A stretch of 64,000 nucleotides of DNA from Patescibacteria group bacterium (GTDB taxonomy: Bacteria > Patescibacteriota > Patescibacteriia > Patescibacteriales > UBA12465), in contig JBAZZR010000001.1 in the NCBI GenBank assembly GCA_041658665.1, positions 384,576 to 448,575 on the forward strand. The letters run 5' to 3'. The notes beneath the pieces were generated by a model. The model ran no database searches and was not told where the DNA came from. It saw only the letters and a program-made list of their open reading frames with translations. The first letter of the stretch is position 1; each line of letters opens with the position of its first letter. The translations under genes and the position numbers were made by a program. Below are positions 11,513 through 24,836 of the stretch, one piece after another.

Positions 11513-11564
11513 ATATATACAAAATGTTTTAAAACATTTTTGTTTTTTGAAAGTAATTTAATAT

Positions 11565-11867
11565 TCCCGGGTAGCGCAGCGGTAGCGCAGTTGGCTGTGA
11601 ACAATAAACGCAGCTTCCTCAGGTAACTGAGGTCGAATAACGAGGTGAATTGTCTGGAAGCCTAAATCCGTAAGGACATGGTAATCAGCAGCCAAGCCCT
11701 GACTTGTCAGGAAAGGTTCAGAGACTATCTCGAAAGAGAGTAGGTCCGTCTAGGAGACGGCCCGAAGCGCCTCGCGCCCTTATAGGGTGATGATATAGTC
11801 CACCCCATTAAGAAATTAGTGGATAAGTGTAACCAATTGGTCGTCGGTTCGAATCCGACCCCGGGAG
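11565..11867 (+). tRNA. tRNA-Asn(GUU) interrupted in the anticodon loop by a group I intron
   Basis: Exon 1 is 11565-11598 and exon 2 is 11830-11867. Together they fold into a full cloverleaf: acceptor TCCCGGG/CCCGGGA, D-arm GCGC-AGCGGTA-GCGC, anticodon stem GTTGG/CCAAT, T-arm GTCGG-TTCGAAT-CCGAC. The joined loop CTGTTAA gives anticodon GTT. U1:A72 and G73 fit bacterial tRNA-Asn. No encoded CCA. Confidence 0.8.
11599..11829 (+). ncRNA. Group I self-splicing intron (small, ORF-less, tRNA-type/IC3-like)
   Basis: P1 forms between exon GGCTGT and intron GCAGCT (11610-11615), with a U.G wobble at the splice site. Core strings GGACATGGTAATCAGCAGCCAAGCCC, GGTTCAGAGACTA and GATATAGTCC parallel the Tetrahymena/Azoarcus cores. 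GAAA and GTAA-type hairpins are present. The terminal base is G. Confidence 0.8.
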
Positions 11868-11873
11868 CTAAAT

Positions 11874-11906
11874 AAAAATAGAGGCTAATAGCCTCTATTT
11901 TTATTT
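11874..11906 (+). terminator. Intrinsic terminator after the tRNA
   Basis: ATAGAGGC-TAATA-GCCTCTAT hairpin followed by TTTTTATTT. Confidence 0.7.
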
Positions 11907-11907
11907 C

Positions 11908-12088
11908 ATCTTCAGGATTTAGGGATTCGAACAGGTCAGAAGCGAAACAAGTTCGAGACGCTATTTCGAGCGGCGAGAACGCAGGTGAGCGTCGCTAAGC
12001 CCGCCCCGGGCGGGCTTAGCGCTGACCCAGGGCAAGTGAGCGACGCGGAAGCGGAGCGAGCGCGATAATCCCTATCCCCGAGCAGTTT
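11908..12088 (+). other. GC-rich structured element (candidate small RNA or recombination site)
   Basis: No ORF, yet much more GC-rich than its surroundings. 13-bp GC hairpin CGCTAAGCCCGCC-CCG-GGCGGGCTTAGCG (11993-12021). Closing pair TAGGGATT (11920-27) / AATCCCTA (12067-74). Sits between two terminators. Confidence 0.35.
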
Positions 12089-12116
12089 TAAATAGCCCTG
12101 AAACAGGGCTATTTTT
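12089..12116 (+). terminator. Intrinsic terminator closing the GC-rich element
   Basis: ATAGCCCTG-AAA-CAGGGCTAT hairpin followed by TTTTT. Confidence 0.65.
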
Positions 12117-12161
12117 GATATGGAGTTTATTGCCTTAGAACAGTATGTTATAATTAAATAT

Positions 12162-12695
12162 ATGAATGAAGAACTATTTGATATTTATGATGAGCAGAAT
12201 AAGCCACTTGGAATGACAAAATCCAGGTCGATTGTGCATAAAGATGGCTCTTGGCACAGAGTAGTGCATATTTATGTTATTAACGACCAGGGACAATATT
12301 TGGTTCATCTCCGCTCTCCTTATAAAGATTTACACCCTAACTGTTGGGATGCCCGCCTTGGTGGTCATGTTGTTGCTGGCATGGATTACGACCAGACTGC
12401 AATTGAGGAATTAAAGCAGGAGATTGGAATTACAGTGAGCCTTAATAATCTAATTTCCAGTAAAATACACAAAAGTGATAACGGCACCAACAGAGAACAT
12501 AGTAAAATATATTTTTATAAATATAATGGCGAACTAACCGATTTACAATTTAACGATAACGAAGTGGTTGAAGTAAAATGGATGTCCCCTGACGATATCA
12601 TCAAATCCATAGAACAAAATCCACAAATTTGGACGACCACCATAAAAGGTTTCCGGGGCATAAATCTTATTCAAGATTCCTTATGGAACAGATAA
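12162..12695 (+). CDS. NUDIX hydrolase
   Basis: Nudix box GGHVVAGMDYDQTAIEELKQEIGI. The ORF opens at 12120, but that codon abuts the terminator. ATG 12162 follows an extended -10 (TGTTATAAT, 12143-12151), so the mRNA may be near-leaderless. Confidence 0.7.
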   Translation: MNEELFDIYDEQNKPLGMTKSRSIVHKDGSWHRVVHIYVINDQGQYLVHLRSPYKDLHPNCWDARLGGHVVAGMDYDQTAIEELKQEIGITVSLNNLISSKIHKSDNGTNREHSKIYFYKYNGELTDLQFNDNEVVEVKWMSPDDIIKSIEQNPQIWTTTIKGFRGINLIQDSLWNR

Positions 12696-12699
12696 ATAA

Positions 12700-12759
12700 G
12701 TTCCAACTATATCCCAACCTCGGAGCATAGAAAAGACGAGAGTAAAATCTCGTTTTTTT
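12700..12759 (+). repeat. Junction module copy: tRNA-3'-end-like segment plus terminator hairpin
   Basis: GTTCCAACTATATCCCAACCTCGGAGCA differs at 2 of 28 positions from the copy at 14966. Followed by an ACGAGA/TCTCGT hairpin and a T-run. Confidence 0.5.
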
Positions 12760-12826
12760 ATGATAAGTAATTATAGTATGATAAATAACAATAAATATTA
12801 ATGTTAAATAAGCCAAAATATAGTTA

Positions 12827-12855
12827 TTGACATTACTGCTTATATAAGCTAAAAT
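12827..12855 (+). promoter_or_regulatory. Sigma-70-type promoter for the fic gene
   Basis: TTGACA, 17-nt spacer, TAAAAT. Confidence 0.5.
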
Positions 12856-12881
12856 TTACAGTATAATGTTAAATAAATAAA

Positions 12882-14075
12882 ATGACTAATGTAAATAATG
12901 CAAAATTTAAAGATATTCCTTTAAAGCTTTATGACCCCAAATGGGGCAGTCAATTAGCTAATGCTGTTATTGAGCTTGAAAAATTAAGGGTTAAAAAGCT
13001 TGGTGGCCCTGTTCCTCCATATATCTTTTTTCAAATAAAAGATATTTTTCAGATTTTAGAGAGCTTGGGCTCAGCCAGAATTGAAGGAAATCATACTACT
13101 TTAGCTGAATTTGTGGAAAAGATTATTGATAATCCTAACAGGCAAACTAAAATAGAAAAAGATAGGGAGATTTTTAATATTGAAAGAGCAATAGATTTTA
13201 TCGAAAAAAATGTAGATAGTAAAACAAAAATTAGCCGTGCTTTCATCTCGGAAATACACAAAATTTTAGTTGATGGTTTAACCCCACCTCCCGGCGGAGA
13301 AGGTTCAAGATATCCGGGTGAAATGCGCCACGAGAATGTTGTTATTACAAAATCAAATCATATTCCGCCAGAAGCTATAAAAGTTTCTGATTATTTTAAC
13401 GAGTTGATTACATTTATTAATCAGCCTATCGAATCCCAATATCATCTTTTAGCGATAGCCATATCTCATCATCGTATGGCTTGGATACATCCTTTTGATA
13501 ATGGTAATGGACGTTTAGTGAGAATGTTTACTTATGCCCTCCTGATTAAGCAGGGTTTTCAGGTTAAAAGCGGTAGGATTTTGAATCCGACGGCCGTATT
13601 TTGCATGGATAGGGATAAGTATTATGATATGCTAGCGCTAGCTGATTCCGGGGAAGAAGAAAAAACATTGGAATGGTGCTTATACGTTCTAGAGGGACTA
13701 CGAACAGAAATAGAAAAAATTGATAAGCTTCTTAATATTTTTTATATTACCAATAACATTCTTTTACCGATGTTATCCTTTGCCTTCGAAAATCAGTATA
13801 TTACTAAACGTGAACATGAAATTCTTTCGGCACTAGTAAAAAGTAAAAAAATGATTATCAAATCTTCTGATTTAATAAAAATGATTGGGAAGGAATCCCC
13901 TGTACAGCGATCAAGAATATTAAGAAGACTAAAGGAAAAACATATGTTAATTCCTCTAGAAGATAAAGGTAGGGTATATACAATCGGATTTGCCAATAAT
14001 TATCTATTGCGTGGGATGATACATATTCTTGAAAAAAATGATTTTATTCCTTTATCTCTAAATAATAAAAATTAA
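12882..14075 (+). CDS. Fic family protein (AMPylase-type) with C-terminal winged-helix-like domain
   Basis: 397 aa. Canonical Fic motif HPFDNGNGR. N-terminal SARIEG matches the (S/T)xxxE(G/N) auto-inhibitory helix motif. Confidence 0.85.
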   Translation: MTNVNNAKFKDIPLKLYDPKWGSQLANAVIELEKLRVKKLGGPVPPYIFFQIKDIFQILESLGSARIEGNHTTLAEFVEKIIDNPNRQTKIEKDREIFNIERAIDFIEKNVDSKTKISRAFISEIHKILVDGLTPPPGGEGSRYPGEMRHENVVITKSNHIPPEAIKVSDYFNELITFINQPIESQYHLLAIAISHHRMAWIHPFDNGNGRLVRMFTYALLIKQGFQVKSGRILNPTAVFCMDRDKYYDMLALADSGEEEKTLEWCLYVLEGLRTEIEKIDKLLNIFYITNNILLPMLSFAFENQYITKREHEILSALVKSKKMIIKSSDLIKMIGKESPVQRSRILRRLKEKHMLIPLEDKGRVYTIGFANNYLLRGMIHILEKNDFIPLSLNNKN

Positions 14076-14085
14076 AATAAATTAT

Positions 14086-14277
14086 ATGGACAAAGAAACA
14101 TGTAAAAAGTGCGGTAGCGAAAACATTGTTATGGTCGAATATGAGCCAGGAAGTCCGGAGCATTATGATGGCGTTAGCGAAATCCAATGCCGAGATTGTG
14201 GAGCTCGTTTTGGTAGATGGTCAGGTAAAGAATTAGCTAAAGGGGAAATAGAAAAACGTTGGGGAAAGAGCGAATAA
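14086..14277 (+). CDS. Small zinc-ribbon protein
   Basis: 63 aa with two CxxC pairs (CKKCGS...CRDCGA). Starts 10 nt after the fic stop. Confidence 0.55.
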   Translation: MDKETCKKCGSENIVMVEYEPGSPEHYDGVSEIQCRDCGARFGRWSGKELAKGEIEKRWGKSE

Positions 14278-14308
14278 TATAATTATTTCAAATCCAATAT
14301 TGATAAAT

Positions 14309-14338
14309 AAAAAGCACCTTTAAATGAGGTGCTTTTTT
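14309..14338 (+). terminator. Intrinsic terminator
   Basis: GCACCT-N7-AGGTGC hairpin followed by TTTTTT. Confidence 0.7.
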
Positions 14339-14424
14339 GACTTTTCGCTAAAATTATGGGATTATTAAAAAAAGATAAAGAAAAGATAAAATATTTATAA
14401 TTTTTCCAATAACACTTTAGCCTC

Positions 14425-14490
14425 GCTTCGAACATCGTCAGCGACTCCGAGCAAATAGACAAAATAGCACTAATGTGCTATTTTTGTTGT
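14425..14490 (+). repeat. Junction module copy (tRNA-3'-end-like segment plus terminator) with no ORF in front
   Basis: GCTTCGAACATCGTCAGCGACTCCGAGCA, then an AAAATAGCAC-TAAT-GTGCTATTTT hairpin. Confidence 0.5.
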
Positions 14491-14513
14491 ATAAATAAAC
14501 ATTTAATAATTTT

Positions 14514-14909
14514 ATGGATTCAAGTAATTGGTACTCACAATTAGTTAAACCATCTTGGGCGCCACCATCATGGTTATTTGGCCCAGTATGGTCATTCCTG
14601 TACGTTCTTATATTAGTTTCTTTTAGTAAGGTTGTTTTAATGTTTATTGAAAAGAAGATATCATTTCTAGTGTTTTTGCCGTTTATTCTTAATATTATTT
14701 TTAATTTATCTTTTACCTATTTCCAGTTTGGCCTTAAAAGTAATATATTAGCAGCTATAGATATATTGTTTGTATTAGGAACATTAATTTGGGCGATTAT
14801 AGTTATTTATCCTCACTCACACTGGGTGTCTTATGCTCAAATTCCATATCTTCTTTGGGTCGCTTTTGCGACTGTGCTTCAATTAACTATTACATACTTA
14901 AATAAATAA
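14514..14909 (+). CDS. tspO: TspO/MBR family tryptophan-rich sensory protein
   Basis: 131 aa, multi-TM. N-terminal WYSQLVKPSWAPPSWLFGPVWSFLY signature. Confidence 0.75.
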   Translation: MDSSNWYSQLVKPSWAPPSWLFGPVWSFLYVLILVSFSKVVLMFIEKKISFLVFLPFILNIIFNLSFTYFQFGLKSNILAAIDILFVLGTLIWAIIVIYPHSHWVSYAQIPYLLWVAFATVLQLTITYLNK

Positions 14910-14965
14910 AATTTTAATTATAATTAAGAGAATAAAAAAATATATTTCAAAGACTAGTTAAAAAT

Positions 14966-15030
14966 GTTCCAACCATATCTCAACCTCGGAGCAAGTAGAC
15001 AAAATAGCACTTTCGTGCTATTTTTGTTAT
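14966..15030 (+). repeat. Junction module copy (tRNA-3'-end-like segment plus terminator)
   Basis: GTTCCAACCATATCTCAACCTCGGAGCA, then an AAAATAGCAC-TTTC-GTGCTATTTT hairpin with the same stem as the copy at 14461. Confidence 0.5.
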
Positions 15031-15058
15031 TAATGAATTAAATAATATACAAGTTTCT

Positions 15059-15535
15059 ATGGAAGCAACATTACTTAAAATTATAGAAATACTAAAAAAA
15101 TTAAACATAAAGCCCGTAATATATGGGTCCTTTGGAGTCTCCTATTATCTTGGTGACTTTAAGCAGTTTGGCGATCTCGATCTTTTGGTAGAGGATAAGT
15201 TCATTGATAATAATTGGGAAGAATTTAAGACATTTCTTTCGTCACATAACTTTGTTGTAATTAATGAGAAAGAACATGAGTTTTTATTTGATAATTTTAA
15301 GATTGGGTTTGCTAAAAAAAGTATACTAGTAAAAGATGGGATAATTGAAGATTACACAGACCTCGCAAAGTACGGGAAAGTTGATGCCTATACTTTACGG
15401 CCCGAACATTTTTTAGCCGTCTACAGATTTAGCTTAAAGGATGGTTACAGACTCGCCAATAGATTAAAAAAAGACCAGGAGATTATTGATAAAATAATAG
15501 AATATATAAAAGTGAATAAGATAGACGCGGATTAA
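15059..15535 (+). CDS. Putative nucleotidyltransferase-fold protein
   Basis: 158 aa. The N-terminal YGSFGVS...GDLDLLV pattern resembles the GS-x-DxD minimal NTase motif. The assignment is tentative. Confidence 0.4.
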   Translation: MEATLLKIIEILKKLNIKPVIYGSFGVSYYLGDFKQFGDLDLLVEDKFIDNNWEEFKTFLSSHNFVVINEKEHEFLFDNFKIGFAKKSILVKDGIIEDYTDLAKYGKVDAYTLRPEHFLAVYRFSLKDGYRLANRLKKDQEIIDKIIEYIKVNKIDAD

Positions 15536-15679
15536 GTCTTAAATTATCACCTAATCTTAGCCACACTATACTGATAATATTGTTTCATTTGCTAAATAGT
15601 TCATGTGTCGGCTTAAGCCTTTGCTATGCTCGAACCTTTATATTTATTTTGTTATAATAAGAATATATTTGAATAAAAA

Positions 15680-17191
15680 ATGAAAAAATACGATTACGTT
15701 ATTATTGGCGCAGGTATAGGGGGCTTAACCGTGGCATCATTATTGGCTAAATCAGGTAAGTCTGTTTGTATTGTTGAGGGTAATAAAGTTTTGGGTGGTT
15801 ATGCCCATACACTTAAAAAAGGTAAATATTCTTTTTGTCACGAAGTTCAATATCTAATGGGCTGTCAGTCTGATGGGCCAATGATCCGCTTCTTTAAGCA
15901 GATCGGTATTGCCAACGATATAAAATTCAACGAGCTCAATCAGAAGGCTTTTGATTTAGTTAGTTTTGATAATTTGAAAGTAGGCATACCGCACGGCCTT
16001 GGCAGTTTTGAAAAAGAAATTATTGGGATGTATTTAAAGTATACCAAGCAGATAAAAAAGTATTTTAATGTTATTGAAACAATTTTTAACACTTCCGACG
16101 CTTATGAAAAAATCCTTGAAACGAATGATGTTTTGCTGCATCCTATAAAACATCGCTCGATTATAAAATATAAAAATTACACACTTCACGATTTTTTTGA
16201 AGAACTAAAATTGCCTCAAGAATTGAGAGCCGTGTTGGCTGGTCAGGCAGGAAATTTATGTGCCAGCCCTAAACAAGTGTCACTTTTAATGCACTCAGCT
16301 ATGCAGGTTGCTTATTGCAAGAGTGCCCATTTTCCTAAAAAAGGTATGGAGTTTGTTGTGAACAAGATCGCCGAAAAAATAACTAAGAATAAGAATAACA
16401 AGATAATTACTGATTGTCTTGTTAAAAAAATTAATTGTAATAAAGACAGAATAATCTCTATTGAAACTGTAAAGGGCACGATTTTCGGCGATAATTTTAT
16501 TTCCAATATCGACCCTAAGCAGACTTATAATTTAATTGATGATAGGAGGTTATCTTGCAAACTACATAAAAAGTTTAATTACGATTATACTAATTCGGCT
16601 TTTACGATTTATCTTGGCTTGAAAAATGTTAATTTGAAAAAATATGGTTTTGGTAAGATGAACATTTGGCATCACTCAACCTTTGATATTGATAAAGAGT
16701 TTAGGGATGAGATTAAAAAGGATGACTTTTCTCATCCTTGGCTGTTCATTTCAACGCCTTCAATGTTAACTGAAAAGGGTATAGTCTGTCCCAAAGGCCA
16801 TCATACAATGGAGATATTGACATTTGTTGATTACGATTACTTTAAAACATTGTACGATAAAGATAAAAATAAGTTTGAATACTTGAAAAATCACATCTAT
16901 AATCACATTCTTGATATTATCGATCAGCATTATCTGCCTAATATCCGAAAATATATAGATGAAAAAATTGTGCATACGCCAATCGACATAGAAAAACTGC
17001 TTCATTCCCCTAAGGGTAACGTTTATGGGTGTAGTTTAACCCCTGACAATTATAGTCTTGGTCGAATAAATTCAAATACTTATTTTGAGAATATGCACTT
17101 TGTTGGGGCAGCTTCTTCTTACCCTGGTGTAATGGGAGTTACTATCGGAGGAATGGATTTGTTTAAAAAATTAAGTAGTGAAAATAATTGA
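15680..17191 (+). CDS. FAD/NAD(P)-dependent oxidoreductase, phytoene desaturase (CrtI)-like family
   Basis: 503 aa. N-terminal dinucleotide-binding motif DYVIIGAGIGGLTVASLLAKSGKSVCIVE. Length and C-terminal GAASSYPG motif fit the CrtI-like family. Confidence 0.75.
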   Translation: MKKYDYVIIGAGIGGLTVASLLAKSGKSVCIVEGNKVLGGYAHTLKKGKYSFCHEVQYLMGCQSDGPMIRFFKQIGIANDIKFNELNQKAFDLVSFDNLKVGIPHGLGSFEKEIIGMYLKYTKQIKKYFNVIETIFNTSDAYEKILETNDVLLHPIKHRSIIKYKNYTLHDFFEELKLPQELRAVLAGQAGNLCASPKQVSLLMHSAMQVAYCKSAHFPKKGMEFVVNKIAEKITKNKNNKIITDCLVKKINCNKDRIISIETVKGTIFGDNFISNIDPKQTYNLIDDRRLSCKLHKKFNYDYTNSAFTIYLGLKNVNLKKYGFGKMNIWHHSTFDIDKEFRDEIKKDDFSHPWLFISTPSMLTEKGIVCPKGHHTMEILTFVDYDYFKTLYDKDKNKFEYLKNHIYNHILDIIDQHYLPNIRKYIDEKIVHTPIDIEKLLHSPKGNVYGCSLTPDNYSLGRINSNTYFENMHFVGAASSYPGVMGVTIGGMDLFKKLSSENN

Positions 17192-17350
17192 TATTGAAAA
17201 TATTTGTTTTTAACATCTTCGAAGAGGATTCGAAGTTATTAGGTTGACCAAAAATAATTATATTTATATTAAACATGAAAGAAATTGTGCCCTTGCTTTG
17301 TATTAGAAGCAAAGGTCGAGTAAAATAATAAATTAATAAATTTTAAGTAT

Positions 17351-17758
17351 ATGAAAAAATCTATATTAAGTTTGGGTGTTTTAGCAATCGTTATTTTGGT
17401 CGGATTATCTGCTAGTGCTGTTTTAGCTTATCAGGGAAATCCTACAATTAAAGGGCCAAACTACTCGGCTGATCGTCATGCAGCCATGGAACAAGCTTTT
17501 GAAAATCATGACTATAATGCTTGGAAAAGTCTGATGACTGGAAATGGCCGAGTTAGGCAAGTTGTAAATAGTGAAAATTTTGCTAAGTTTGCCGAAGCTC
17601 ATGAATTAACTGAACAAGGCAAAAATGCCGAAGCACAAAAAATTCGTCAAGATCTAGGTTTAGGTTTAAATAATGGTTCCGGCAACGGATGTGGCCTCGG
17701 GAATGGCAGTGGTAAGGGTGGCTGCAAAATGAACGCTGGTTGCGGTTTAAATCGCTAA
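17351..17758 (+). CDS. Secreted small protein with Gly/Cys-rich C-terminus
   Basis: 135 aa. Signal peptide (…SASAVLA/YQ), a helical middle, and a C-terminal GSGNGCGLGNGSGKGGCKMNAGCG tail. Confidence 0.55.
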   Translation: MKKSILSLGVLAIVILVGLSASAVLAYQGNPTIKGPNYSADRHAAMEQAFENHDYNAWKSLMTGNGRVRQVVNSENFAKFAEAHELTEQGKNAEAQKIRQDLGLGLNNGSGNGCGLGNGSGKGGCKMNAGCGLNR

Positions 17759-17841
17759 AACATTTTGTTTTATTATTCACTAGGCCTCGGTTAATTCGGG
17801 GCCTGGTGTATAGTTGGGTGTGATTTGTTATAATTGATACT

Positions 17842-18384
17842 ATGAGTAAAAATATTATACTTTCCGATGAAGAAATCATTGAAAGAGTCCGATCGGAAGA
17901 TCAGGAGCTTTATTCTCTTATAATTGAAAGATATCAGGATAAGCTTTTACGTTACGCGACAAATTTAATTCAAGACGAACACAACGCCGCCGATATAGTA
18001 CAAGAAGCCTTTATTAAAGCATTTATAAATTTACGAGGGTTTAATACGAAAAAGAAATTTTCTAGCTGGATTTATCGCATCGTTCATAATGAATCAATAA
18101 ATATAGCTAAAAAATATCAAAGAGAAGTGCCAATCTTAGAAAATGTAGATTTTAAAAGTGAAGAAAATATTGAACTTAATTTTGAAAAAAAGGAAATTAT
18201 GGAAAAAGTTGAAAAATGCTTTGCAAAGATGCCGTTATTATACGCTGAGCCACTTCGTTTATTTTATATTGATGAAAAATCTTATGAAGAAATAAGCGAT
18301 ATTTTAAGATTGCCAATGGGGACGGTCGCAACCCGGGTTAATAGAGCAAAAATATTAATTAAACATATATGCCAAAAGAACTAA
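17842..18384 (+). CDS. ECF-type RNA polymerase sigma factor
   Basis: 180 aa. Region 2 (DIVQEAFIKAF...WIYRIVHNE) and region 4 (SYEEISDILRLPMGTVATRVNRAK) are present. Confidence 0.8.
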   Translation: MSKNIILSDEEIIERVRSEDQELYSLIIERYQDKLLRYATNLIQDEHNAADIVQEAFIKAFINLRGFNTKKKFSSWIYRIVHNESINIAKKYQREVPILENVDFKSEENIELNFEKKEIMEKVEKCFAKMPLLYAEPLRLFYIDEKSYEEISDILRLPMGTVATRVNRAKILIKHICQKN

Positions 18385-18830
18385 AACATATAACTAATGA
18401 TATAATGGGCGAAATTCGTCATGGGAAATTAAAAATGCGTCCCAAGATTTATTTTATTGTTGGCTCGATTCTTGTTTTTATAAGTTTAATATTATCAGCG
18501 TTAAGTTCTATTTTTCTTTTTGGCTTAATAAGATTCTCCTTACGCTCTCATGGTCCAATGGAGCAGTATCGCTGGGAGCAGCTTTTAGCTAGTTTTCCTT
18601 GGTGGACAGTAATTTTTGCTTTTTTAGGACTGTTAGTGGGAATTTGGCTACTTCGTAAATATGATTTTTCTTATAAAATAGATTTTAAAATATTAATAAT
18701 CGGGTTTGTGGCGGTTATAATTATTACCGGGTACTTAGTAGATGCCATTGGTCTAAATGATATATTTTCTCGTCAGGGATGTATGAATAGAATTTATGGT
18801 AGAAATAATTGTTCTCGGATTATTAAGTAA
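18369..18830 (+). CDS. Membrane protein, possible anti-sigma partner
   Basis: 153 aa with about 4 TM helices. Overlaps the ECF sigma stop by 16 nt, suggesting translational coupling. No recognisable anti-sigma domain. Confidence 0.45.
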   Translation: MPKELKHITNDIMGEIRHGKLKMRPKIYFIVGSILVFISLILSALSSIFLFGLIRFSLRSHGPMEQYRWEQLLASFPWWTVIFAFLGLLVGIWLLRKYDFSYKIDFKILIIGFVAVIIITGYLVDAIGLNDIFSRQGCMNRIYGRNNCSRIIK

Positions 18831-18876
18831 ATTTACTAAAATATAATGAAAATTTTTTAAAAATAATATAAATATT

Positions 18877-19773
18877 ATGCATCAAAGAAATGAGGGGATA
18901 CTCGATCGACTAATTAGAATAGTATTAGCAGAGATTTTTTTTCTTTTAGCTTTTTTTTGGTTCGGAGGCATTGCACAGATAGTTTTGTATATTTTAAGTT
19001 TAATGATGATTGTAACGGCCGCTATGGGTTTTTGCGGGTTGTATAAATTAATTGGATTTAATACCAATAAGAATAATAAGAAGATATCAAGGATACTAAT
19101 TGTTGTTTTTATTACTATTTTTTTAACGATCGCTATTGCTGGAAGTTATTATAGCAGTTTCTTTACTAGAAAATTTTTTCTAGAAGATTATAATGTAATG
19201 AATAATTATTATAAACAAACATTATTTAATACTGGACAAGAAAAAAGGTCAGAATCAATTTCTAATTATGATAATTTGGTTTTAGAATATGCTAAGTTTT
19301 CGACAAAGTACTCCAATTACCATCCTCGTGTTGTTGCTAATGATAAGAATTTTAATTCCGACTTAGCCAAAGTTTCAGTGCTTATCATAAATTTAAAAGG
19401 TAAGGTTTATGTGGGTGATCTAAAGGAAGCCCATACTAATTTCGAAGAGGTTCGTCCGATTTTTCAAGATATCTTGAAGCGCAATAGTTTTTCTATGTTG
19501 GCCGTGTATTTAGTCGATTTTCATGATTCCATGGAGAAGGTAATCGCCGAGGCGGATAAACAAAATATAGCAGGAGTTATTGACACATATATTGATGCTA
19601 ATGGTAAATTAATGACCGTTGAGGAGGTGGCTAACGATGATGAAATTAAGGTAATTAGAAATAACCTGGAAGCATTGTTGAATTTAGCTAAATCAGGGGG
19701 CACTGAAAGCTTGTCCGCTAAAGCGGCTGAGTTAAAAAGCAGCTTTGTTAAAGTTTATTTGAAGCGGGGATAA
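18877..19773 (+). CDS. Membrane protein with DUF2892-like N-terminus and helical C-terminal domain
   Basis: 298 aa. The N-terminal LDRLIRIVLA... two-TM segment resembles the YgaP/DUF2892 module. The rest is unassigned. Confidence 0.5.
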   Translation: MHQRNEGILDRLIRIVLAEIFFLLAFFWFGGIAQIVLYILSLMMIVTAAMGFCGLYKLIGFNTNKNNKKISRILIVVFITIFLTIAIAGSYYSSFFTRKFFLEDYNVMNNYYKQTLFNTGQEKRSESISNYDNLVLEYAKFSTKYSNYHPRVVANDKNFNSDLAKVSVLIINLKGKVYVGDLKEAHTNFEEVRPIFQDILKRNSFSMLAVYLVDFHDSMEKVIAEADKQNIAGVIDTYIDANGKLMTVEEVANDDEIKVIRNNLEALLNLAKSGGTESLSAKAAELKSSFVKVYLKRG

Positions 19774-19801
19774 TCATGGTTTCTATTATCTCTCTTTTTT
19801 T

Positions 19802-19900
19802 GCGTCGAATCTGACCTTGGGAGCAGATAAAAATACTAGCATAAAATGCTAGTATTTTTATTTCAGCATGGCTCTAGGATTCGGACAGGTTAGAAGCGAG
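19802..19900 (+). repeat. Best-preserved direct repeat of the tRNA 3' end, terminator and downstream sequence
   Basis: About 100 nt align colinearly with 11846-11947: GTCGAATCTGACCTTGGGAGCA, then hairpin ATACTAGC/GCTAGTAT, TTTTTATTTC, then AGGATTCGGACAGGTTAGAAGCGA. The hairpin stem shows compensatory changes relative to the tRNA terminator. Confidence 0.65.
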
Positions 19901-19973
19901 CTTAGCCAAAGGTCAGTATACTAAAAGTGACTAAAGCCTATTTTGTGTTATAATAGATAGATAAACTCAAAAT

Positions 19974-20792
19974 ATGAACAGATTATTATCAATGTTGGGA
20001 CATAAAATCAAAGAATTAGTGCAGTATCCTTTATTTATCTTAGAGGATATTTTATCGATTGTGCGTAATATAACTAATATAAATTTGCAATCGGCCTTTC
20101 TTAAAACTCGGGCCGATGGCTATCGTTTGGCCGGTTATTACTGGAAAGTATTTTATCCCACTTTTGACGGCTGGGCTTTGACAAAATCTTCTTTAAGATA
20201 TTTCTGTGGCGAGTTTTTTAAAGCGCCGGCTCATACCTCTATCTTTGAATTGGGTAGTGGCGCTTCTACTATTTTTTGGAAAAATTTGATGGAGGGAAAC
20301 GACCTGGGAATAAAAGTTGTATCTTTAGAGCATGATGTCGATTGGCACAGAAAGGTAACGGCCGATCTAGGGGAAACACGCCAGGCCTCCGTCTGCCTTA
20401 GCGAGCTGAGATGTTTGCGTCAGGATAAGAGAGACTTGATTTTCGGCAATCCGGATCAGGCCGAAGCTAATTTTTATCAAAACAGTGATACGGTTCGGGC
20501 GGACGTTGCCAAGACCACACAGATTGATAATTTTTTTTATGATATTAGGGCGTTGGGTAGTAGTCTAAGTAAAATAGACGGCCTGATAGTCGATGGCCCG
20601 CACGGCGGCGGTCGCTCTCTGGCTTTTCCTTTGCTTTATAAATTCATACATGCGGGAACCGTTATTCTGATAGATGATTTTGATGACTATCCCTTTTTAT
20701 CCGACCTGAGCCGGATATTTAAGTTTAAGATTGTTAAGCAGTCTATTCCCGGTCTCAGTTTGAAACGGTGGATTATTGTGAAGATTTTATAG
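19974..20792 (+). CDS. Putative class I SAM-dependent methyltransferase-fold protein
   Basis: 272 aa. FELGSGASTIFW resembles SAM-binding motif I, and an LIVDGPHGGG / ILIDDFDD pattern follows. Tentative. Confidence 0.4.
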   Translation: MNRLLSMLGHKIKELVQYPLFILEDILSIVRNITNINLQSAFLKTRADGYRLAGYYWKVFYPTFDGWALTKSSLRYFCGEFFKAPAHTSIFELGSGASTIFWKNLMEGNDLGIKVVSLEHDVDWHRKVTADLGETRQASVCLSELRCLRQDKRDLIFGNPDQAEANFYQNSDTVRADVAKTTQIDNFFYDIRALGSSLSKIDGLIVDGPHGGGRSLAFPLLYKFIHAGTVILIDDFDDYPFLSDLSRIFKFKIVKQSIPGLSLKRWIIVKIL

Positions 20793-20960
20793 ATTTTTAG
20801 TCTATTTATTTTTCTTAATAAGATAGTTCCTTATTTACAAAAAAGAGAAGTGTTTTGCTTCTAGGTTATTCCAAGGAGTGGTTATTAAGAAGATTGTGAA
20901 GTATGTTCATATTTATCTAAAACCGTTCCAATTATTCCAAACTCCGAATTCTATAAACAT

Positions 20961-21500
20961 ATGAGTGTCAAAATAATTTATTTTGTCCATGGCACAACCA
21001 CGGACAATGAGACGGGCAAGTGCACTGGTTGGGCTGGTGGAGAATTGTCCGAATTAGGCATTATACAGGCTAAGGAGCTAAAAAATCAGATCAAAGAGAG
21101 GGATTTCCAAGTGATGTTCTGTTCCGATCTAAAAAGAGCGATTGATTCGGCTAATTTAGGTTTTCAAGGCGATTATAAGATTATTCAAGATGAAAGATTG
21201 AGAGAATGTAATTATGGCGATTTAACTCAGACTGATGAAAGTTTGGTTGATTATATGAAACAGATAAATACTCCATTTCCAGACGGCGAATCGATGAAAG
21301 ATGTCGAGAAAAGGATGAGAGATTTCATCGATTACTTGAAAAGGGAATATGACGGCAAATTTGTCGCTATTATGGCACATAAGGCACCACAATTAGCTTT
21401 GGATGTAATATTAAATGGTAAAACCTGGGAACAGGCAATTAATGAGGACTGGCGCAATAAGAAGGCTTGGCAACCGGGCTGGATTTATAATATTAATTAA
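20961..21500 (+). CDS. Histidine phosphatase (phosphoglycerate mutase-like) family protein
   Basis: 179 aa. IYFVHGTTTDNE in place of the RHG motif (the Arg is absent), then SDLKRA and a later MAHKAP His. Confidence 0.65.
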   Translation: MSVKIIYFVHGTTTDNETGKCTGWAGGELSELGIIQAKELKNQIKERDFQVMFCSDLKRAIDSANLGFQGDYKIIQDERLRECNYGDLTQTDESLVDYMKQINTPFPDGESMKDVEKRMRDFIDYLKREYDGKFVAIMAHKAPQLALDVILNGKTWEQAINEDWRNKKAWQPGWIYNIN

Positions 21501-21504
21501 ATTT

Positions 21505-22845
21505 ATGGATGCGGACATAAAAAATAATAATGACAATTTTAATACTATGAAAAAATTATTTTTTAGACACTTTTGGTGGCTTGGACTTGGTATTATAATA
21601 ATGTTGATCGTTTTCGGTATAATCATTAATGATGCCCACAAAAAAGATGAAAATAAATTTGATGACAAAAAGGGAGTAGGTCAAGAACAGAATATTGCTT
21701 TAGCCGAAAATCTTCCTGTTTGTCCGGCCGACACTTCCGGGCTTTTTACTAAGCCGTTCATGGATGGTGATAAACCGGACATGATTATCCCGCTCGGCCA
21801 TTCGAGCCTGTCCGGCCACGTTGTTCCCACCGACCATGTTTATCCAAACAACAATATTTTTGTCCCAGATATGCCGATCTATGCGCCGGGAAGAATAACT
21901 TTAATCTGGATAGAAAATAAACAAATGTACTATAAGGAAACCAATGAAAAAGTCGCCCCTGATTATCAGCTCAACTTTGCACCTTGCCGCGGTATTAATT
22001 TAACCTTTATTCATCTCACAAAATTATCAGACAAATTATCATCGGCCATCACGGAAAAAGTGGATTCCAACTGTGATGACTCTCAAAAAATGGATTTCGG
22101 TACCAGAAATGGAGCTCCAATATATTACAAAACTTGCCATCCAAAGTTTGTTCAAGTCACACTGGAACCAGGTGAACTTATAGGCTATTTCGGATTTACT
22201 GATAGGGTAGGAAAATCACAGGTCAACTTTGATATTGGTATCTATGACTTTAACAAACCAGCCTTGGCTTTTGTTAACCCTGATAGATATTATAACGAAA
22301 CTAACCATACCGCTTGTTTTACCGACTATTATGTACCGGAACTGCGAGCGAAATACGAGGCGAAGTTCGGTAGCAATGATAATAATAATGGCCAGCTATC
22401 ATTTTTACAGCGCACTACTGAACCGGTTTGCGGTCAGGTAATGTATGATATCGCCGGTACGGCGGCTGGTTCCTGGTTTAAAAATCCTCTAGAAAAATGG
22501 AACATCACCGATCAGGACGCCCTCGCGCTAATTCATGATAATTTAAAACCAGAATTAGTCAAAATGTCGATGGCTGGTATCACGAGTTATACTTTCACAC
22601 CGACTCACTCCGGCACTACCAATCGGGAATTCTCCGAAGTGAATGCCGACAATAAGATCTACTACTATCAAAGTGACGATAATTTTGATGGCTCTTATTT
22701 AGATAAAGACGGCAAGACGATTACCAAAGAGGGGTTTAAATATTTGTTGCAGTTAGTTGATGACATCCATCTCAAAGCCGAAGTTCAATCTGGCACCTGC
22801 GACACAAACGAATCATTTAAAAATCCTTATATATTTGAAAGGTAA
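21505..22845 (+). CDS. Membrane-anchored extracytoplasmic protein, function unknown
   Basis: The track ORF starts at 21415, inside the previous gene. In-frame ATG 21505 gives MDADIK... with a single N-terminal TM helix and a Cys-containing exported domain. Confidence 0.55.
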   Translation: MDADIKNNNDNFNTMKKLFFRHFWWLGLGIIIMLIVFGIIINDAHKKDENKFDDKKGVGQEQNIALAENLPVCPADTSGLFTKPFMDGDKPDMIIPLGHSSLSGHVVPTDHVYPNNNIFVPDMPIYAPGRITLIWIENKQMYYKETNEKVAPDYQLNFAPCRGINLTFIHLTKLSDKLSSAITEKVDSNCDDSQKMDFGTRNGAPIYYKTCHPKFVQVTLEPGELIGYFGFTDRVGKSQVNFDIGIYDFNKPALAFVNPDRYYNETNHTACFTDYYVPELRAKYEAKFGSNDNNNGQLSFLQRTTEPVCGQVMYDIAGTAAGSWFKNPLEKWNITDQDALALIHDNLKPELVKMSMAGITSYTFTPTHSGTTNREFSEVNADNKIYYYQSDDNFDGSYLDKDGKTITKEGFKYLLQLVDDIHLKAEVQSGTCDTNESFKNPYIFER

Positions 22846-22866
22846 ATTTATACGCTTTATTAGTAA

Positions 22867-22898
22867 GGTCGTTCTGACTATATCTCAATCTCAGCGCA
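22867..22898 (+). repeat. Degenerate junction module copy (tRNA-3'-end-like)
   Basis: GGTCGTTCTGACTATATCTCAATCTCAGCGCA keeps the tRNA variable-loop/T-stem start GGTCGT and resembles the copies at 12700 and 14966. Confidence 0.35.
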
Positions 22899-22901
22899 GC
22901 A

Positions 22902-22931
22902 TTGACAAAAAATATTCCAATGTGATATATT
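22902..22931 (+). promoter_or_regulatory. Reiterated promoter module, copy E (diverged)
   Basis: TTGACAAAAAATAT...TGTGATATATTTTTTTATTG, with TTGACA plus TATATT at an 18-nt spacer. Confidence 0.45.
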
Positions 22932-22981
22932 TTTTTATTGATCTTTAAAATTAATGTTTAATTAGAATAGGAGAAAAAGTA

Positions 22982-23047
22982 ATGGAAGAAAATAATCTTT
23001 GTTGTCTTGTTGATCATAACAATGATCACGTAACTCTAAATTCTTAG
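22982..23047 (+). CDS. Possible 21-aa micro-ORF (MEENNLCCLVDHNNDHVTLNS)
   Basis: AGGAG lies 8 nt upstream of the ATG, and the ORF is downstream of promoter copy E. Too short to assess by composition. Confidence 0.25.
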   Translation: MEENNLCCLVDHNNDHVTLNS

Positions 23048-23088
23048 TAATTGAACTTCGGAACGAGTGGTGCTAGTATTAAAATAGT

Positions 23089-23262
23089 ATGAAAAAAAAT
23101 TATAAAAAAATACTATATTTTGTTTTAGCCATATTATTTGGTGTGTTTATGTTTGTATACGGCGAATTTGATGATAGTCCTGGTGGGCAACTGATAGGGC
23201 TAATAGCGTTTATTATCGGTGTTATTGGCCTCATAATGAGCAGGCAGAAGACTTCTGATTAA
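23089..23262 (+). CDS. Possible 57-aa two-TM membrane protein
   Basis: ORF below the track cut-off: MKKNYKKILYFVLAILFGVFMFVY...LIGLIAFIIGVIGLIMSRQKTSD. Two clear hydrophobic helices. No obvious SD. Confidence 0.35.
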   Translation: MKKNYKKILYFVLAILFGVFMFVYGEFDDSPGGQLIGLIAFIIGVIGLIMSRQKTSD

Positions 23263-23284
23263 ATTACTGTTCTTTTATCGTTTG

Positions 23285-23314
23285 CAAAATAGCACTTTTT
23301 GTACTATTTTTGTT
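23285..23314 (+). terminator. Terminator hairpin of the AAAATAGCAC family
   Basis: AAAATAGCAC-TTTTT-GTACTATTTT. One mismatch relative to the copies at 14461 and 15001. Confidence 0.5.
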
Positions 23315-23329
23315 ATATAAACTAAAAAT

Positions 23330-23668
23330 ATGAATTGGCAATCCAGTTTTAAAAAAGGTAAAGAGATTATATTATCCACTTCTTCAAAAAATAATATTCC
23401 TAATGCTAATATTGTTATTTCTTTAGGTTTTATTAGAAATAAGTTGTTAATAGCGGATTGTCAAATGAAGAACACAATAAAAAATTTAAAAGCAAATAAT
23501 CATATTTGTGTTATTGGCGGATATTTTAGAATTAAAGGAAAGGTTAATATTTTTTCTTCCGGAAAATATTTTGATATTTGCGTTAAAAATAGTGCTAACT
23601 ATAAAGTTAAAAATGCTATTTTAATAACTATAAAAGAGGTCTTTGATCTAAACATATGTCAAGAATAA
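23330..23668 (+). CDS. Pyridoxamine 5'-phosphate oxidase-like (FMN-binding split barrel) family protein
   Basis: 112 aa. The pattern KEIILSTSSKNNIPNANIV...IADCQMKNTIKNLKANNHICV resembles small PNPOx-like proteins. Tentative. Confidence 0.45.
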   Translation: MNWQSSFKKGKEIILSTSSKNNIPNANIVISLGFIRNKLLIADCQMKNTIKNLKANNHICVIGGYFRIKGKVNIFSSGKYFDICVKNSANYKVKNAILITIKEVFDLNICQE

Positions 23669-23934
23669 TTACTAAAAAAGTTCTCCCTGAATATTTCCAA
23701 GATATTCTAGACGGAAAAAAGAAATATGAGCTAAGACTTAATGATTTTGAGATTGAGCCAGGTGACACTTTAATTTTAGAAGAGTATACTTCGACTGATC
23801 CAAACGTAAGACAGGCTACTGGCAGAGTAATTGAAAAACAAGTCACCTATCTAAGAAAATTTAAGTTACAAGATTTGTGGTGGAGTGAAAAAGATGTTAA
23901 AGAGAAGGGGGTTCAAATAATTTCCTTTAAATAA
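23656..23934 (+). CDS. ASCH/DUF3850-like domain protein
   Basis: 92 aa. VLPEYFQDILDGKKKYELRLNDFEIEPGDTLILEEY matches my recollection of the DUF3850 (ASCH-like) pattern. 13-nt overlap with the previous ORF. Confidence 0.55.
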   Translation: MSRIITKKVLPEYFQDILDGKKKYELRLNDFEIEPGDTLILEEYTSTDPNVRQATGRVIEKQVTYLRKFKLQDLWWSEKDVKEKGVQIISFK

Positions 23935-24028
23935 TATAACCATTTAATATTTGAGTATTATTAAACATTTTTAAATTTTTACTTATAGTTAGTCCTCCAA
24001 TCCAAAGCTATAAACACGTTTAGTATAT

Positions 24029-24074
24029 GGAGCTCCGATAAAAAATAGACTAATATTAGTTTATTTTTTATTTT
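24029..24074 (+). repeat. Junction module copy (tRNA acceptor-end-like GGAGCT plus terminator)
   Basis: GGAGCTCCGATAAAAAATAGACTAATATTAGTTTATTTTTTATTTT parallels GGGAGCTAAATAAAAATAGAGGCTAATAGCCTCTATTTTTATTTC at the true tRNA end. Confidence 0.4.
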
Positions 24075-24078
24075 ATTA

Positions 24079-24107
24079 TTGACATATATTAAATTTAGTT
24101 GTAAAAT
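24079..24107 (+). promoter_or_regulatory. Sigma-70-type promoter for the 211-aa orphan
   Basis: TTGACA, 17-nt spacer, TAAAAT. Confidence 0.5.
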
Positions 24108-24828: not shown

Positions 24829-24836
24829 CCTAGAAG

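Follow-up and report, generated by a model that had tools for sequence, protein, structure and literature searches.

We consider it likely that the gene array behind tRNA-Asn in the window (the whole 64,000-nt stretch of DNA analysed, from a Patescibacteria group bacterium with a small genome of 821 kb) was built by serial site-specific integration at the 3' end of that tRNA gene, a hotspot in Falkowbacteria-like Patescibacteria, and that the window holds an array of this kind without an integrase. This interpretation follows from the elements found at tRNA-Asn in relatives (L numbers below denote fetched loci), taken together with junctions that match those of the window. The original prediction, that pieces of the tRNA 3' end recur downstream of the gene, was confirmed as a whole: the copies are real, and matches to models built only from relatives are confined to this locus.

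Results

The tRNA-Asn gene and its array

ARAGORN found no tRNA in the unspliced window. A group I intron was matched by Rfam RF00028 at 11521-11822 (86 bits), the match overlapping the tRNA exons, and with 11565-11598 joined to 11830-11868 ARAGORN identified tRNA-Asn(GTT) in the spliced sequence. The intronless tRNA-Asn of L088 is 100% identical to both exons. The features of this region are listed here, type 1 being one of two types of tRNA-like site described below.

11565-11868 (+): tRNA-Asn(GUU), intron-split; exon 1 11565-11598, exon 2 11830-11868
11599-11829 (+): group I intron, inserted at tRNA position 35/36
11848-11868 (+): 21-nt att core TTCGAATCCGACCCCGGGAGC, from the T-loop to the tRNA 3' end
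11869-11945 (+): alpha hairpin and right-hand flank ending AGAAGCGA, colinear with 19825-19899
11869-30708 (+): variable array of about 24 accessory genes (Pfam)
11936-12065 (no strand assigned): GC-rich (about 60%) structured insert inside a type-1-like site
12066-12115 (+): 3' half of the type-1-like site (ATCCCTATCCCCGAGC) and terminator hairpin (12090-12114), from sequence comparison

The alpha hairpin, at about 11873-11903, is the tRNA terminator (fold -19.7 kcal/mol), and the same type lies 3' of tRNA-Asn cores in L094, L099, L108 and L112. The GC-rich insert gave fold z-scores of -4.8 and -5.5, one per strand, and matched no Rfam family; L115 carries a GC-rich insert at the equivalent position. 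Behind it, the type-1 HMM responded weakly to 12066-12115 (E=0.64). The 16-mer ATCCCTATCCCCGAGC occurs identically within an L108 junction, and the segment from about 12076 to 12120 aligns over 47 nt, at 83% identity, with the hairpin 3' of a type-2 site in L106 (13782-13828).

The units of the array are small, mostly of one to three genes in a single orientation, and their cargo by Pfam includes NUDIX, Fic, TspO, an ECF sigma factor, a YgaP-like protein, methyltransferases and DUF3850. The recognisable row of junctions covers ~18 kb, from 11.9 to about 29.4 kb. Significant intergenic direct repeats of the window likewise fall at 11.8-29.4 kb, the exception being one pair of promoters (42.5 and 58.6 kb). 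A homolog of the operon starting at 30709 adjoins rpoD in L094 and L091. With the arrays of relatives the window shares only TspO (81-86% amino acid identity), the YgaP-like gene (78%) and DUF3850 (79%), which have other neighbours or a changed order there, a Fic-domain gene adjoining TspO in L114 as in the window; for most island genes no homologs were found in the relatives' arrays. An independent assembly from another run reproduces 11839-23431 at 100% identity, so the array is no assembly artefact. For this genome neither an empty site nor a circular junction nor any polymorphism between strains was observed, the sole other sample having an identical island. The prediction that no integrase is visible in the window proved correct both by tblastn (E<=10) and by the family HMM against the six-frame translation. 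The arm-type motif had 0 matches in the window allowing up to 3 mismatches, and the mobility of this array is thus unproven.

Junctions in the window

The junction hairpins of the window fall into four families (alpha, beta, gamma and delta), of which delta is a near-consensus promoter. The junctions are as follows.

12699-12759 (+): junction A, type-1 site (12699-12727) and beta hairpin; type-1 HMM E=1e-6
14427-14490 (+): junction C, type-2 site (14427-14455) and gamma hairpin (14461-14484); type-2 HMM E=1.8e-4
14965-15030 (+): junction B, type-1 site (14965-14993) and gamma hairpin (15001-15024); type-1 HMM E=2.4e-5
19802-19899 (+): displaced tRNA 3' end (core, alpha hairpin, flank ending AGAAGCGA); nhmmer E=3.7e-8
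20921-20947 (+): junction E, type-1 site without a hairpin; type-1 HMM E=4.4e-3
22866-22940 (+): junction D, type-1 site (22866-22898) and delta module; type-1 HMM E=0.017
23285-23331 (+): gamma hairpin alone, without a tRNA-like part; 84% identical to 15000-15048 and 14460-14502
24029-24076 (+): GGAGC and alpha-like hairpin (fold -13.1 kcal/mol), the weakest junction
24976-25017 (+): delta module with TTGACA, 17-nt spacer, TATATT and embedded hairpin; 11/12 promoter positions match
26830-26876 (+): delta module, 79% identical to 28758-28804
28753-28810 (+): delta module, 91% identical over 58 nt to 29349-29406
29349-29406 (+): delta module, beyond which no junction element is recognisable (intergenic repeat and matches in relatives)

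The displaced tRNA 3' end aligns to 11846-11945 and is colinear with it for ~100 nt; blastn gave 77% identity in 99 columns (E about 1e-12). As had been claimed, the match runs past the terminator, continuing through the hairpin into AGGATTCGGACAGGTTAGAAGCGA. The core of this copy (19804-19824) shares 17/21 bases with the tRNA core, with 4 mismatches, and direct reading of its hairpin (fold -18.3 kcal/mol) shows compensatory changes at three base pairs of the stem. The broader proposal that hairpin stems differ by compensatory changes holds in part: ATAGAGGC/GCCTCTAT and ATACTAGC/GCTAGTAT are homologous and both pair perfectly, but AAAATAGCAC/GTGCTATTTT is not a compensatory variant of these two, since it comes from a different hairpin family.

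The weaker copies proposed for the tRNA end are also real. Type-1 and type-2 HMMs were trained exclusively on other genomes and then run on the 64-kb window, where they recovered five junctions at E 1e-6 to 2e-2, all on the + strand and all intergenic, with no further match in the rest of the 64 kb (next-best E>4). Starting from the window itself the signal is fainter. With the window tRNA alone as query the weak copies are individually not significant, iterative search seeded with the window tRNA and the best copy reached 12712-12761 at only E=0.016 and next 14964-15008 at E=8e-4, and counts of short acceptor-like motifs in the window, taken alone, show no excess over chance.

Direct reading bore out that 12700-12727 and 14966-14993 differ at 2/28 positions. 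The type-1 site of junction A is identical at 28/28 positions to L096 10543-10570, and 12723-12758 is identical at 36/36 to the integrase-proximal arm of L108 and L110; the junction also matches the tRNA end and hairpin of L088 at 92% over 48 nt. Junction B is 89% identical to junction C over 44 nt and 87% identical to junction A over 38 nt. Its gamma hairpin is 92.5% identical to that of L115, and type-1 sites of the window and L115 agree at 26/28 positions. Junction C, whose HMM match spans 14427-14453, was scored terminator-like and matches a junction in L106 at 73% identity over 64 nt. The next ATG lies 14 nt downstream of junction E. Junction D (HMM match 22870-22897) is 66% identical to junction A, and its delta part shares 80% identity with 29353-29405. 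The terminator-only copy proposed at 23285-23314 is a true copy of the hairpin at 14461/15001 (E about 1e-7 to 1e-8). At 24029-24074 the GGAGC and a hairpin like that after the L094 tRNA core (87% over 30 nt, E=2e-4) were found, and nothing more of the proposed copy.

The delta module at 24976-25017 is 86% identical to the copies at 28755 and 29351, and that at 28753-28810 has matches in L093, L086 and L105. A delta module stands directly 3' of the tRNA-Asn core in L106 and of a displaced core in L088. For each of the alpha, beta and delta types, at least one relative has the hairpin immediately 3' of an intact tRNA-Asn core; in L088 and L108 a gamma-like hairpin comes after junction sites that resemble the tRNA.

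Integrase-bearing elements in relatives

Seven distinct elements adjoin tRNA-Asn in the relatives (L088, L108, L111, L112, L117/118, L120 and, by its distal end only, L093), and in all of these except the last a tyrosine integrase was seen. Counted by the enzyme, 6/7 distinct integrase-bearing loci fetched have it beside tRNA-Asn, the seventh being L116. The elements lie downstream of dnaG-rpoD wherever that flank was fetched (L088, L111, L112). The exact 21-nt core is the direct repeat bounding the elements in L088, L108, L111 and L112, and a displaced core fragment closes those in L117 and L120 (core-model matches). The order in L088 is tRNA-Asn, hairpin, a 380-aa PF00589 integrase (E=1.6e-31), restriction-modification cargo and, 7.3 kb downstream, the distal exact core. 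A search at E<=1e-20 gave 1893 homologs of this integrase family. A rolling-circle (RCR) Rep was recorded in L111, L112, L117 and L120, its Pfam RepSA match being weak or faint; L109 and L120 carry an HTH_17 gene of excisionase-like type.

In L112 tandem accretion is seen directly: the tRNA is followed by three successive junctions, two perfect cores and one decayed core, and units 2 and 3, though devoid of an integrase, retain P arms with the motif TTGTGACGCTATTGTGAC.

Discussion

Three lines of evidence support the proposal that repeated insertion at the tRNA 3' end displaced earlier att remnants, namely the seven elements at tRNA-Asn, the triple junctions of L112 and the 36/36 arm identity. 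According to our hypothesis, elements of 7-8 kb would recombine with the tRNA-Asn gene at its final 21 nt. Each carries a lambda-type tyrosine integrase, which in most is accompanied by a rolling-circle Rep and an HTH protein resembling excisionases. The incoming element would supply its own att core and hairpin, so that the tRNA would stay intact and the terminator would be kept, and at each insertion the earlier 3' flank would be displaced downstream. Repeated events, integrase-less satellite units included, would build a one-directional array in which, at each junction, the att core of the incoming unit is joined in tRNA register to the hairpin arm of the previous unit. An integrase of the L088 type would have catalysed these events, whose order we infer, and strand exchange at type-1 junctions would fall at or just after GGAGC. 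The hairpins would persist because they serve the small gene units as terminators and, in one family, as a promoter. Since the window lacks both an integrase and recognisable arm-type sites, its array would either be a fossil or depend for any movement on an integrase from elsewhere.

Units of 0.5-2 kb lack an integrase backbone, and for these the explanation needs satellites or repeated deletion.

The view that the copies form one series decaying in place did not hold for most of the weak copies. These are members of a conserved family of 27-nt tRNA-like sites that also occurs in other genomes and is probably element-borne. Run against 1.53 Mb (106 fetched loci), a combined site model gave matches confined to tRNA-Asn arrays. 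Decay of displaced tRNA ends alone is insufficient, and element-borne variant att cores are needed; the evidence for such cores comes from the single contig L116, where a type-1 site stands in register at the joint adjoining the integrase arm.

The same contig could be read in favor of an integron-like cassette system, in which the 27-nt sites are active and a trans-acting integrase captures, excises and reshuffles genes at a tRNA-Asn platform. Sites of both types are kept across genomes beside non-homologous genes (28/28 in L096, 26/28 in L115), types 1 and 2 align gap-free and share a +5/+2-nt indel pattern relative to the tRNA core, the units are small and one-way, and cargo order differs among genomes. 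Yet we regard this reading as unlikely. The integrase sits inside classical int-xis-rep elements beside attL with no fixed platform, no excised circle or presence/absence pair was seen, and scars of elements with variant-core attP account equally for the facts. The likeness to integron cassettes with attC-like ends fails in sequence as well, insofar as 0 complementary RYYYAAC...GTTRRRY pairs were found where about 2 were expected by chance, and at least five units are preceded by a near-consensus promoter.

A second alternative holds that terminator-plus-promoter modules were spread by duplication or homologous recombination, the tRNA likeness being incidental save for a segmental duplication at 19.8 kb. 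Gamma and delta repeats do continue through promoter elements to the next start codon, the delta copies at 26830, 28755 and 29351 have no recognisable upstream tRNA-like part, and the short acceptor-like motifs alone are not enriched. We nevertheless judge it most improbable, as the same sites and hairpins are joined in register to genuine tRNA-Asn cores in other genomes, HMMs built from relatives recover the window junctions, and local duplication leaves the identity to an integrase-proximal arm unexplained. That these are generic intrinsic terminators of AT-rich DNA resembling tRNA ends by chance is scarcely credible: the stems have the A-tracts and T-tracts of typical terminators and the weak copies fall short of significance from the window tRNA alone, but other window terminators are unrelated in sequence, and the confinement of the repeat families, bar the promoter pair, together with site-model matches across genomes largely refutes it.

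Serial integration at tRNA-Asn has counterparts elsewhere. CALINs, integron attC clusters without an integrase, likewise have small cassettes in one orientation with site-like ends and no integrase nearby; here, however, the sites go back to the 3' end of a tRNA, lack the R''/R' signature of attC, and the relatives' integrase is element-borne rather than a platform IntI. The pSAM2-type integrative elements of actinomycetes carry an int-xis-repSA module with a rolling-circle Rep and enter tRNA genes, as do the int, xis and Rep modules seen here, but transfer genes such as traSA were not detected and the phylum differs. Tandem islands at tRNA and tmRNA genes, the Dehalococcoides ssrA islands (PMC3146451) and Islander-type islands (PMC4383910), share an intact target RNA gene at one end, 3'-end direct repeats bounding successive islands of a variable region, an integration module beside attL on the reverse strand, and some units without that module, proposed to be cis-mobilizable. 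They differ from the present case in that Dehalococcoides uses a CcrB-like serine recombinase (PMC3146451) and not a tyrosine integrase, that the target here is tRNA-Asn in Patescibacteria, that our units are much smaller and often single-gene, and that most junctions here carry the 27-nt variant site with no exact repeat. Tycheposons of Prochlorococcus are likewise small; they combine a tyrosine recombinase (a likeness of class), a replication module and cargo, use tRNA genes in a streamlined genome as their integration sites and push older elements inward, and tRNA-flanked islands of that organism hold scattered partial tRNAs and degenerate remnants (bioRxiv 10.1101/2020.12.28.424599). Their replication module is a primase/helicase, whereas ours is an RCR Rep (PF23343/RepSA-like), and no PICI-like capsid-related genes were seen here. 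Streptococcal CIMEs and the accretion of ICEs and IMEs place att-flanked, integrase-less units in tandem with an integrase-bearing relative (PMC5704250). Units 2 and 3 of L112 are a clear CIME-like example, from which the window units differ in lacking the arm-type motif, and genes for conjugation or mobilisation were not seen here.

In conclusion, the kind of system described here is already known; the lineage in which it occurs is new.

Results

The target gene and its intron

The window belongs to a metagenomic contig of 821,845 bp, has a GC content of ∼35% and holds nearly all of its genes on the + strand; its nearest named relatives by RpoD are Candidatus Falkowbacteria and Patescibacteria bins, at 78-80% identity. 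ARAGORN called no tRNA in the window, the tRNA-Asn gene being concealed from it by an intron at position 35/36. Rfam placed a group I intron at 11521-11822 (86 bits), a match that overlaps the tRNA exons, and comparison with intronless relatives gave the tRNA boundaries listed below, with one splice point after GCUGU and the other between G and UAACC.

8216-10021, dnaG, upstream of the tRNA-Asn array
10027-11358, rpoD, upstream of the tRNA-Asn array
11565-11598, tRNA-Asn exon 1
11599-11829, group I intron of tRNA-Asn
11830-11868, tRNA-Asn exon 2

The joined exons are called as tRNA-Asn(gtt), both are identical to the intronless gene of the related locus L088, and an intact target gene stands at one boundary of the array. 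Group I fold, insertion at anticodon 35/36 and tRNA-Asn exons all agree with the Patescibacteria intron already described at this position, for which self-splicing has been demonstrated in a paper that mentions neither integrases nor islands (PMC13011429). The intron is present in 5 fetched relatives and missing from 8. Its distribution among relatives is patchy (noted at L086, L087, L089, L099, L101, L111, L114 and L120 besides the window), and in L114 the intron region extends over ∼550 nt with a called 108-aa ORF that has no Pfam match. Upstream of the tRNA, the rpoD terminator (11398-11432) is a hairpin of the same type, termed alpha, as the tRNA terminator (AAAAATAGGCC...GGCCTATTTTT-like), and is 89-93% identical to the hairpin after displaced tRNA ends in L108 and L112.

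Copies of the tRNA end in the window

The original prediction held that the tRNA end and its terminator recur downstream as a single series of decaying copies, with compensatory changes in the hairpin stems. The strongest repeat is real: tRNA 3' end, terminator and flank (11846-11945) recur at 19802-19899 (nhmmer E=3.7e-8, 77% over 99 columns), and inside this 100-nt colinear copy a same-orientation displaced core, i.e. a repeat of the last 21 nt of the tRNA, matches the tRNA end at 17/21 bases (19804-19824). Compensatory changes were confirmed for this copy: its stem differs from that of the tRNA terminator by three such pairs, and both versions fold perfectly (-19.7 and -18.3 kcal/mol). These were read directly and from per-copy folds; a covariation count on the alpha hairpins was rejected because the gapped alignment puts divergent copies out of register. 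We also rejected the inverted match at 11845-11934 as a convergent minus-strand tRNA-like gene, since it is mostly terminator palindrome plus the palindromic TTCGAA and lacks T-arm pairing.

Taken by itself, the window does not suffice to establish the weaker copies: short acceptor-stem motifs (12-13 nt, ≤3 mismatches) occur at counts equal to chance and have no value as a test, and an HMM built on the two strong copies matches 12712-12761 at no better than E=0.016 (and, on iteration, 14964-15008 at 8e-4). A single-sequence search with the tRNA module matches only the 19802 copy and the module's own palindrome. Moreover, all-against-all comparison of intergenic DNA does not support a single series: the tRNA module does recur, but the list of copies mixes several repeat families.

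Repeat families in the intergenic DNA of the window, from all-against-all comparison
tRNA module: 11849, 19805
type-1 tRNA-like site: 12690, 14956, 22861
gamma hairpin: 14445, 14985, 23285
delta module (promoter-like): 22901, 24976, 26830, 28755, 29351

Almost all significant intergenic direct repeats of the window lie at 11.8-29.4 kb, the sole other significant pair being a promoter repeat at 42.5 and 58.6 kb.

The delta module consists of TTGACA, a 17-nt spacer with an embedded hairpin, TATATT and then ATTACYTTAACAAT. It is kept across genomes (window 22901, 24976, 26830, 28755 and 29351; L086, L093, L105, L106, L108, L088 and L112) and is found immediately 3' of tRNA-Asn cores as well as, in the role of a near-consensus promoter, before several unrelated genes, which may indicate a shared regulatory element.

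Two classes of tRNA-like site, tested from other genomes

Relatives were found by searching metagenome contigs with the non-conserved N-terminus of RpoD, which gave 22 related loci, with tRNA-Asn downstream of rpoD in most of them. The window shares with the arrays of L106, L108, L096, L088 and L115 a layout of gene, tRNA-like site, hairpin and next gene, and the sites in the relatives fall into two 27-nt classes, CGTTCCAACTATATCCCAACCTCGGAGC (type 1) and GGTTCGAACATCGTCCACGACCCCGAGC (type 2). HMMs trained on the sites of these five other arrays only recovered five sites in the window, with no further match at E<0.6.

Matches in the window to HMMs trained on other genomes only
12699-12727, type 1, E=1e-6
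14965-14993, type 1, E=2.4e-5
20921-20947, type 1, E=4.4e-3
22870-22897, type 1, E=0.017
14427-14453, type 2, E=1.8e-4

Against 1.53 Mb (106 fetched loci) a combined model matches only tRNA-Asn-array sites and genuine tRNA-Asn ends, and the type-1 pattern has 0 matches in viral contigs. The weak copies are thus real sites, but their description as decaying tRNA ends fits them poorly. Both types are kept between genomes beside non-homologous genes (the site at 12699-12727 matches L096 at 28/28 positions and L115 at 26/28), and they align to each other without gaps, sharing the same +5-nt and +2-nt insertions relative to the tRNA end. At the junction formed by 12699-12727 and its beta hairpin (junction A), 9/21 positions of the core part depart from the tRNA, while the neighbouring 36 nt show 100% identity to the integrase-proximal arm of L108/L110; a diverged core beside an identical arm does not fit neutral decay in place. 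Each of the alpha, beta and delta hairpins is found in some relative directly 3' of an intact tRNA-Asn core; a gamma-like hairpin comes after tRNA-like junction sites in L088 and L108.

A GC-rich (∼60%), strongly structured insert occupies 11936-12065 inside a type-1-like site, between GGGATTCGAAC and ATCCCTATCCCCGAGC; at the matching position of L115 (∼6335-6400) a GC-rich insert is also present but shorter. As a known ncRNA it was rejected (no Rfam family at E<0.05 for 11915-12085), and a 27-nt exact search found no match to it in viral contigs; a small ncRNA and a miniature mobile insert are both possibilities.

Integrase elements beside tRNA-Asn in relatives

L088 contains an intact integrated element. 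Its tRNA-Asn is followed by ATAGAAAAGACGAGAGTAAAATCTCGTTTTTT, the same hairpin as at 12728-12759 of the window, then by a reverse-strand 380-aa tyrosine recombinase (PF00589, E=1.6e-31) and by DpnI, Dam and DpnII genes; the tRNA end recurs 7.3 kb downstream as an exact 21-nt repeat, TTCGAATCCGACCCCGGGAGC, which leads into the delta module (TTGACAAAAAACTATAC...). The same P arm, with the core, is found in L093. The integrase family is large (1893 homologs at E≤1e-20), and several members are named as Falkowbacteria or Patescibacteria integrases.

We examined seven distinct integrase-bearing loci. In 6/7 (L088, L108/109/110, L111, L112/113, L117/118 and L120) the integrase abuts tRNA-Asn inside the island, and each of these six has a displaced core further downstream; the seventh is L116. 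Where the upstream flank was fetched (L088, L111, L112), it shows the locus to be downstream of dnaG-rpoD. L111, L112, L117, L120 and L116 encode a rolling-circle Rep (PF23343/RepSA-like), and L109 and L120 have an HTH_17 excisionase-like gene; the remaining cargo varies and is often defence-related.

L112 displays accretion directly. Downstream of its tRNA come a 7.2-kb integrase element and a perfect core, then 1.9 kb without integrase (116 aa, 78 aa, TspO, Pyr_excise) and a second perfect core, then 1.7 kb (381 aa) ending in a decayed core and delta module, and all three junctions have common ∼200-nt P arms bearing TTGTGACGCTATTGTGAC. This 18-nt motif is repeated in both arms of integrated elements (L088, L093, L108, L110 and L112) and is a candidate arm-type integrase binding site. 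Site HMMs detected no internal pseudo-att sites in the integrase elements as an origin of cargo-only units.

In L117 (271-2856) the array extends past the displaced core with genes for an IstB-like ATPase and a large serine recombinase of 540 aa, and mobile elements of a second kind may share the region there.

State and cargo of the array

The 64-kb window has no integrase by Pfam, by tblastn at E≤10 or by the family HMM against its six-frame translation, as had been predicted, and TTGTGACGCTATTGTGAC is absent from it. Units between att-like junctions without recombination genes are found in the window, as they are between the cores of L112. The window's cargo comprises NUDIX, Fic, TspO, an ECF sigma/anti-sigma pair, a YgaP-like protein, methyltransferases, a histidine phosphatase and DUF3850. 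By sequence only TspO (81% identity in L112, 84% in L114, 86% in L115), the YgaP-like gene (78% in L115) and DUF3850 (79% in L088) recur in relatives' arrays, and L114 has a Fic-domain gene adjoining TspO (Pfam only). Gene order is not kept: in L115, for instance, the YgaP-like gene precedes TspO, and in the window it follows TspO. Gene content differs among relatives and synteny is interrupted, as in a tRNA island.

A homolog of the operon at 30709-35852 adjoins rpoD in L094 and L091, and the distal limit of the array is therefore taken as ∼30.7 kb; its last recognisable module ends at 29406. In the only other sample, an independent assembly of another run, 11839-23431 is 100% identical, which rules out an assembly artefact and is uninformative on polymorphism. 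Contig breaks in SRR8449812 were rejected as a sign of island polymorphism, since they flank the intron and not the island. Contigs of many relatives stop inside tRNA-Asn or within ∼150 nt of it (L003, L004, L087, L097, L108, L118), consistent with strain heterogeneity or with hotspot repeats breaking assemblies.

Two features lie elsewhere in the window. At 53615-54076, 462 nt of GC-rich intergenic DNA precede a 1241-aa gene and match no Rfam family at E≤0.1; they may form a structured RNA or leader not yet described. At 62056-62830, 775 nt of coding-like composition with no ORF of ≥50 aa in the gene map may be a pseudogene or a frameshifted gene.

Discussion

Accretion in L112, together with an integrase beside tRNA-Asn in six loci, bears out the predicted interpretation of the array as serial site-specific insertion at the tRNA 3' end. 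It is a real feature and a further case of a known kind of system. The same logic is seen in the Dehalococcoides ssrA islands, which are tandem, have 20-bp repeat boundaries and in some cases lack integration modules (PMC3146451), in CIME accretion (PMC5704250), and, likened by architecture from the paper's description, in the Prochlorococcus tycheposons, where successive integrations drive older elements into the island and scatter partial tRNAs (bioRxiv 10.1101/2020.12.28.424599). CIMEs are expected to retain integrase-binding arms and to have a cognate integrase in the same genome; TTGTGACGCTATTGTGAC has 6 copies in L112 and none within the 64-kb window. We found no literature description of a tRNA-Asn hotspot in Patescibacteria.

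It had also been proposed that the units resemble integron cassettes with attC-like ends. Our results speak against this, and the resemblance is one of layout only. Complementary RYYYAAC...GTTRRRY pairs 40-130 nt apart number 0 in 11300-31000 on both strands, against a mean of 2.0 in shuffles. An integron or CALIN would be expected to show an IntI-type integrase, attI and Pc, and the window has no integrase; in the relatives it is encoded within int-xis-rep elements that have tRNA cores at their boundaries, and does not belong to a fixed platform. Finally, integron cassettes are mostly promoterless, whereas near-consensus TTGACA-17/18-TATATT promoters (10-11/12 positions) occur in the window at 22902, 24979, 26830, 28758 and 29354, and extended -10 boxes (TGTTATAAT-like) at several other units.

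The conserved 27-nt variant sites may be read in two ways. The 7,383-nt contig L116, which carries a single int, a single xis-like gene and a single Rep, has the order cargo, type-1 site, beta hairpin and int, i.e. a P/P' joint, corresponding to either attP or a tandem junction; terminal overlap, as a sign of circular closure, is absent, and its DNA homology to other elements begins only at the xis gene. This one contig suggests that the elements bring types 1 and 2 with them as att cores, which then remain as attR scars, and that strand exchange at junction A would have occurred within or just after GGAGC. It could alternatively be hypothesized that the sites are active recombination sites and not scars, in a cassette exchange anchored at tRNA-Asn with the integrase supplied in trans by small int-xis-rep elements. 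We consider this improbable; if true, single promoter-bearing genes would be captured, shuffled and shared among Falkowbacteria-like Patescibacteria genomes by a functional analogue of integrons made of tRNA-derived sites.

Mobile elements and gene flow are poorly charted in the ultra-small, host-dependent Patescibacteria. The serial insertion described here identifies a conserved tRNA-Asn hotspot, adjoining dnaG-rpoD in most loci examined, and an integrase family, large and specific to the lineage, whose 7-8 kb elements mostly carry a rolling-circle Rep and in several cases defence genes (restriction-modification, HEPN, DndB, GmrSD, PIN). The 21-nt core, the 27-nt variant sites and the four hairpin arms provide sequence markers for such islands in metagenome bins, and since many relatives' contigs end at tRNA-Asn, the hotspot may also fragment assemblies of these organisms. 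Together with its relatives, the locus shows integrase-less satellite units, and with them a concrete route by which streamlined genomes gain and shuffle accessory genes.
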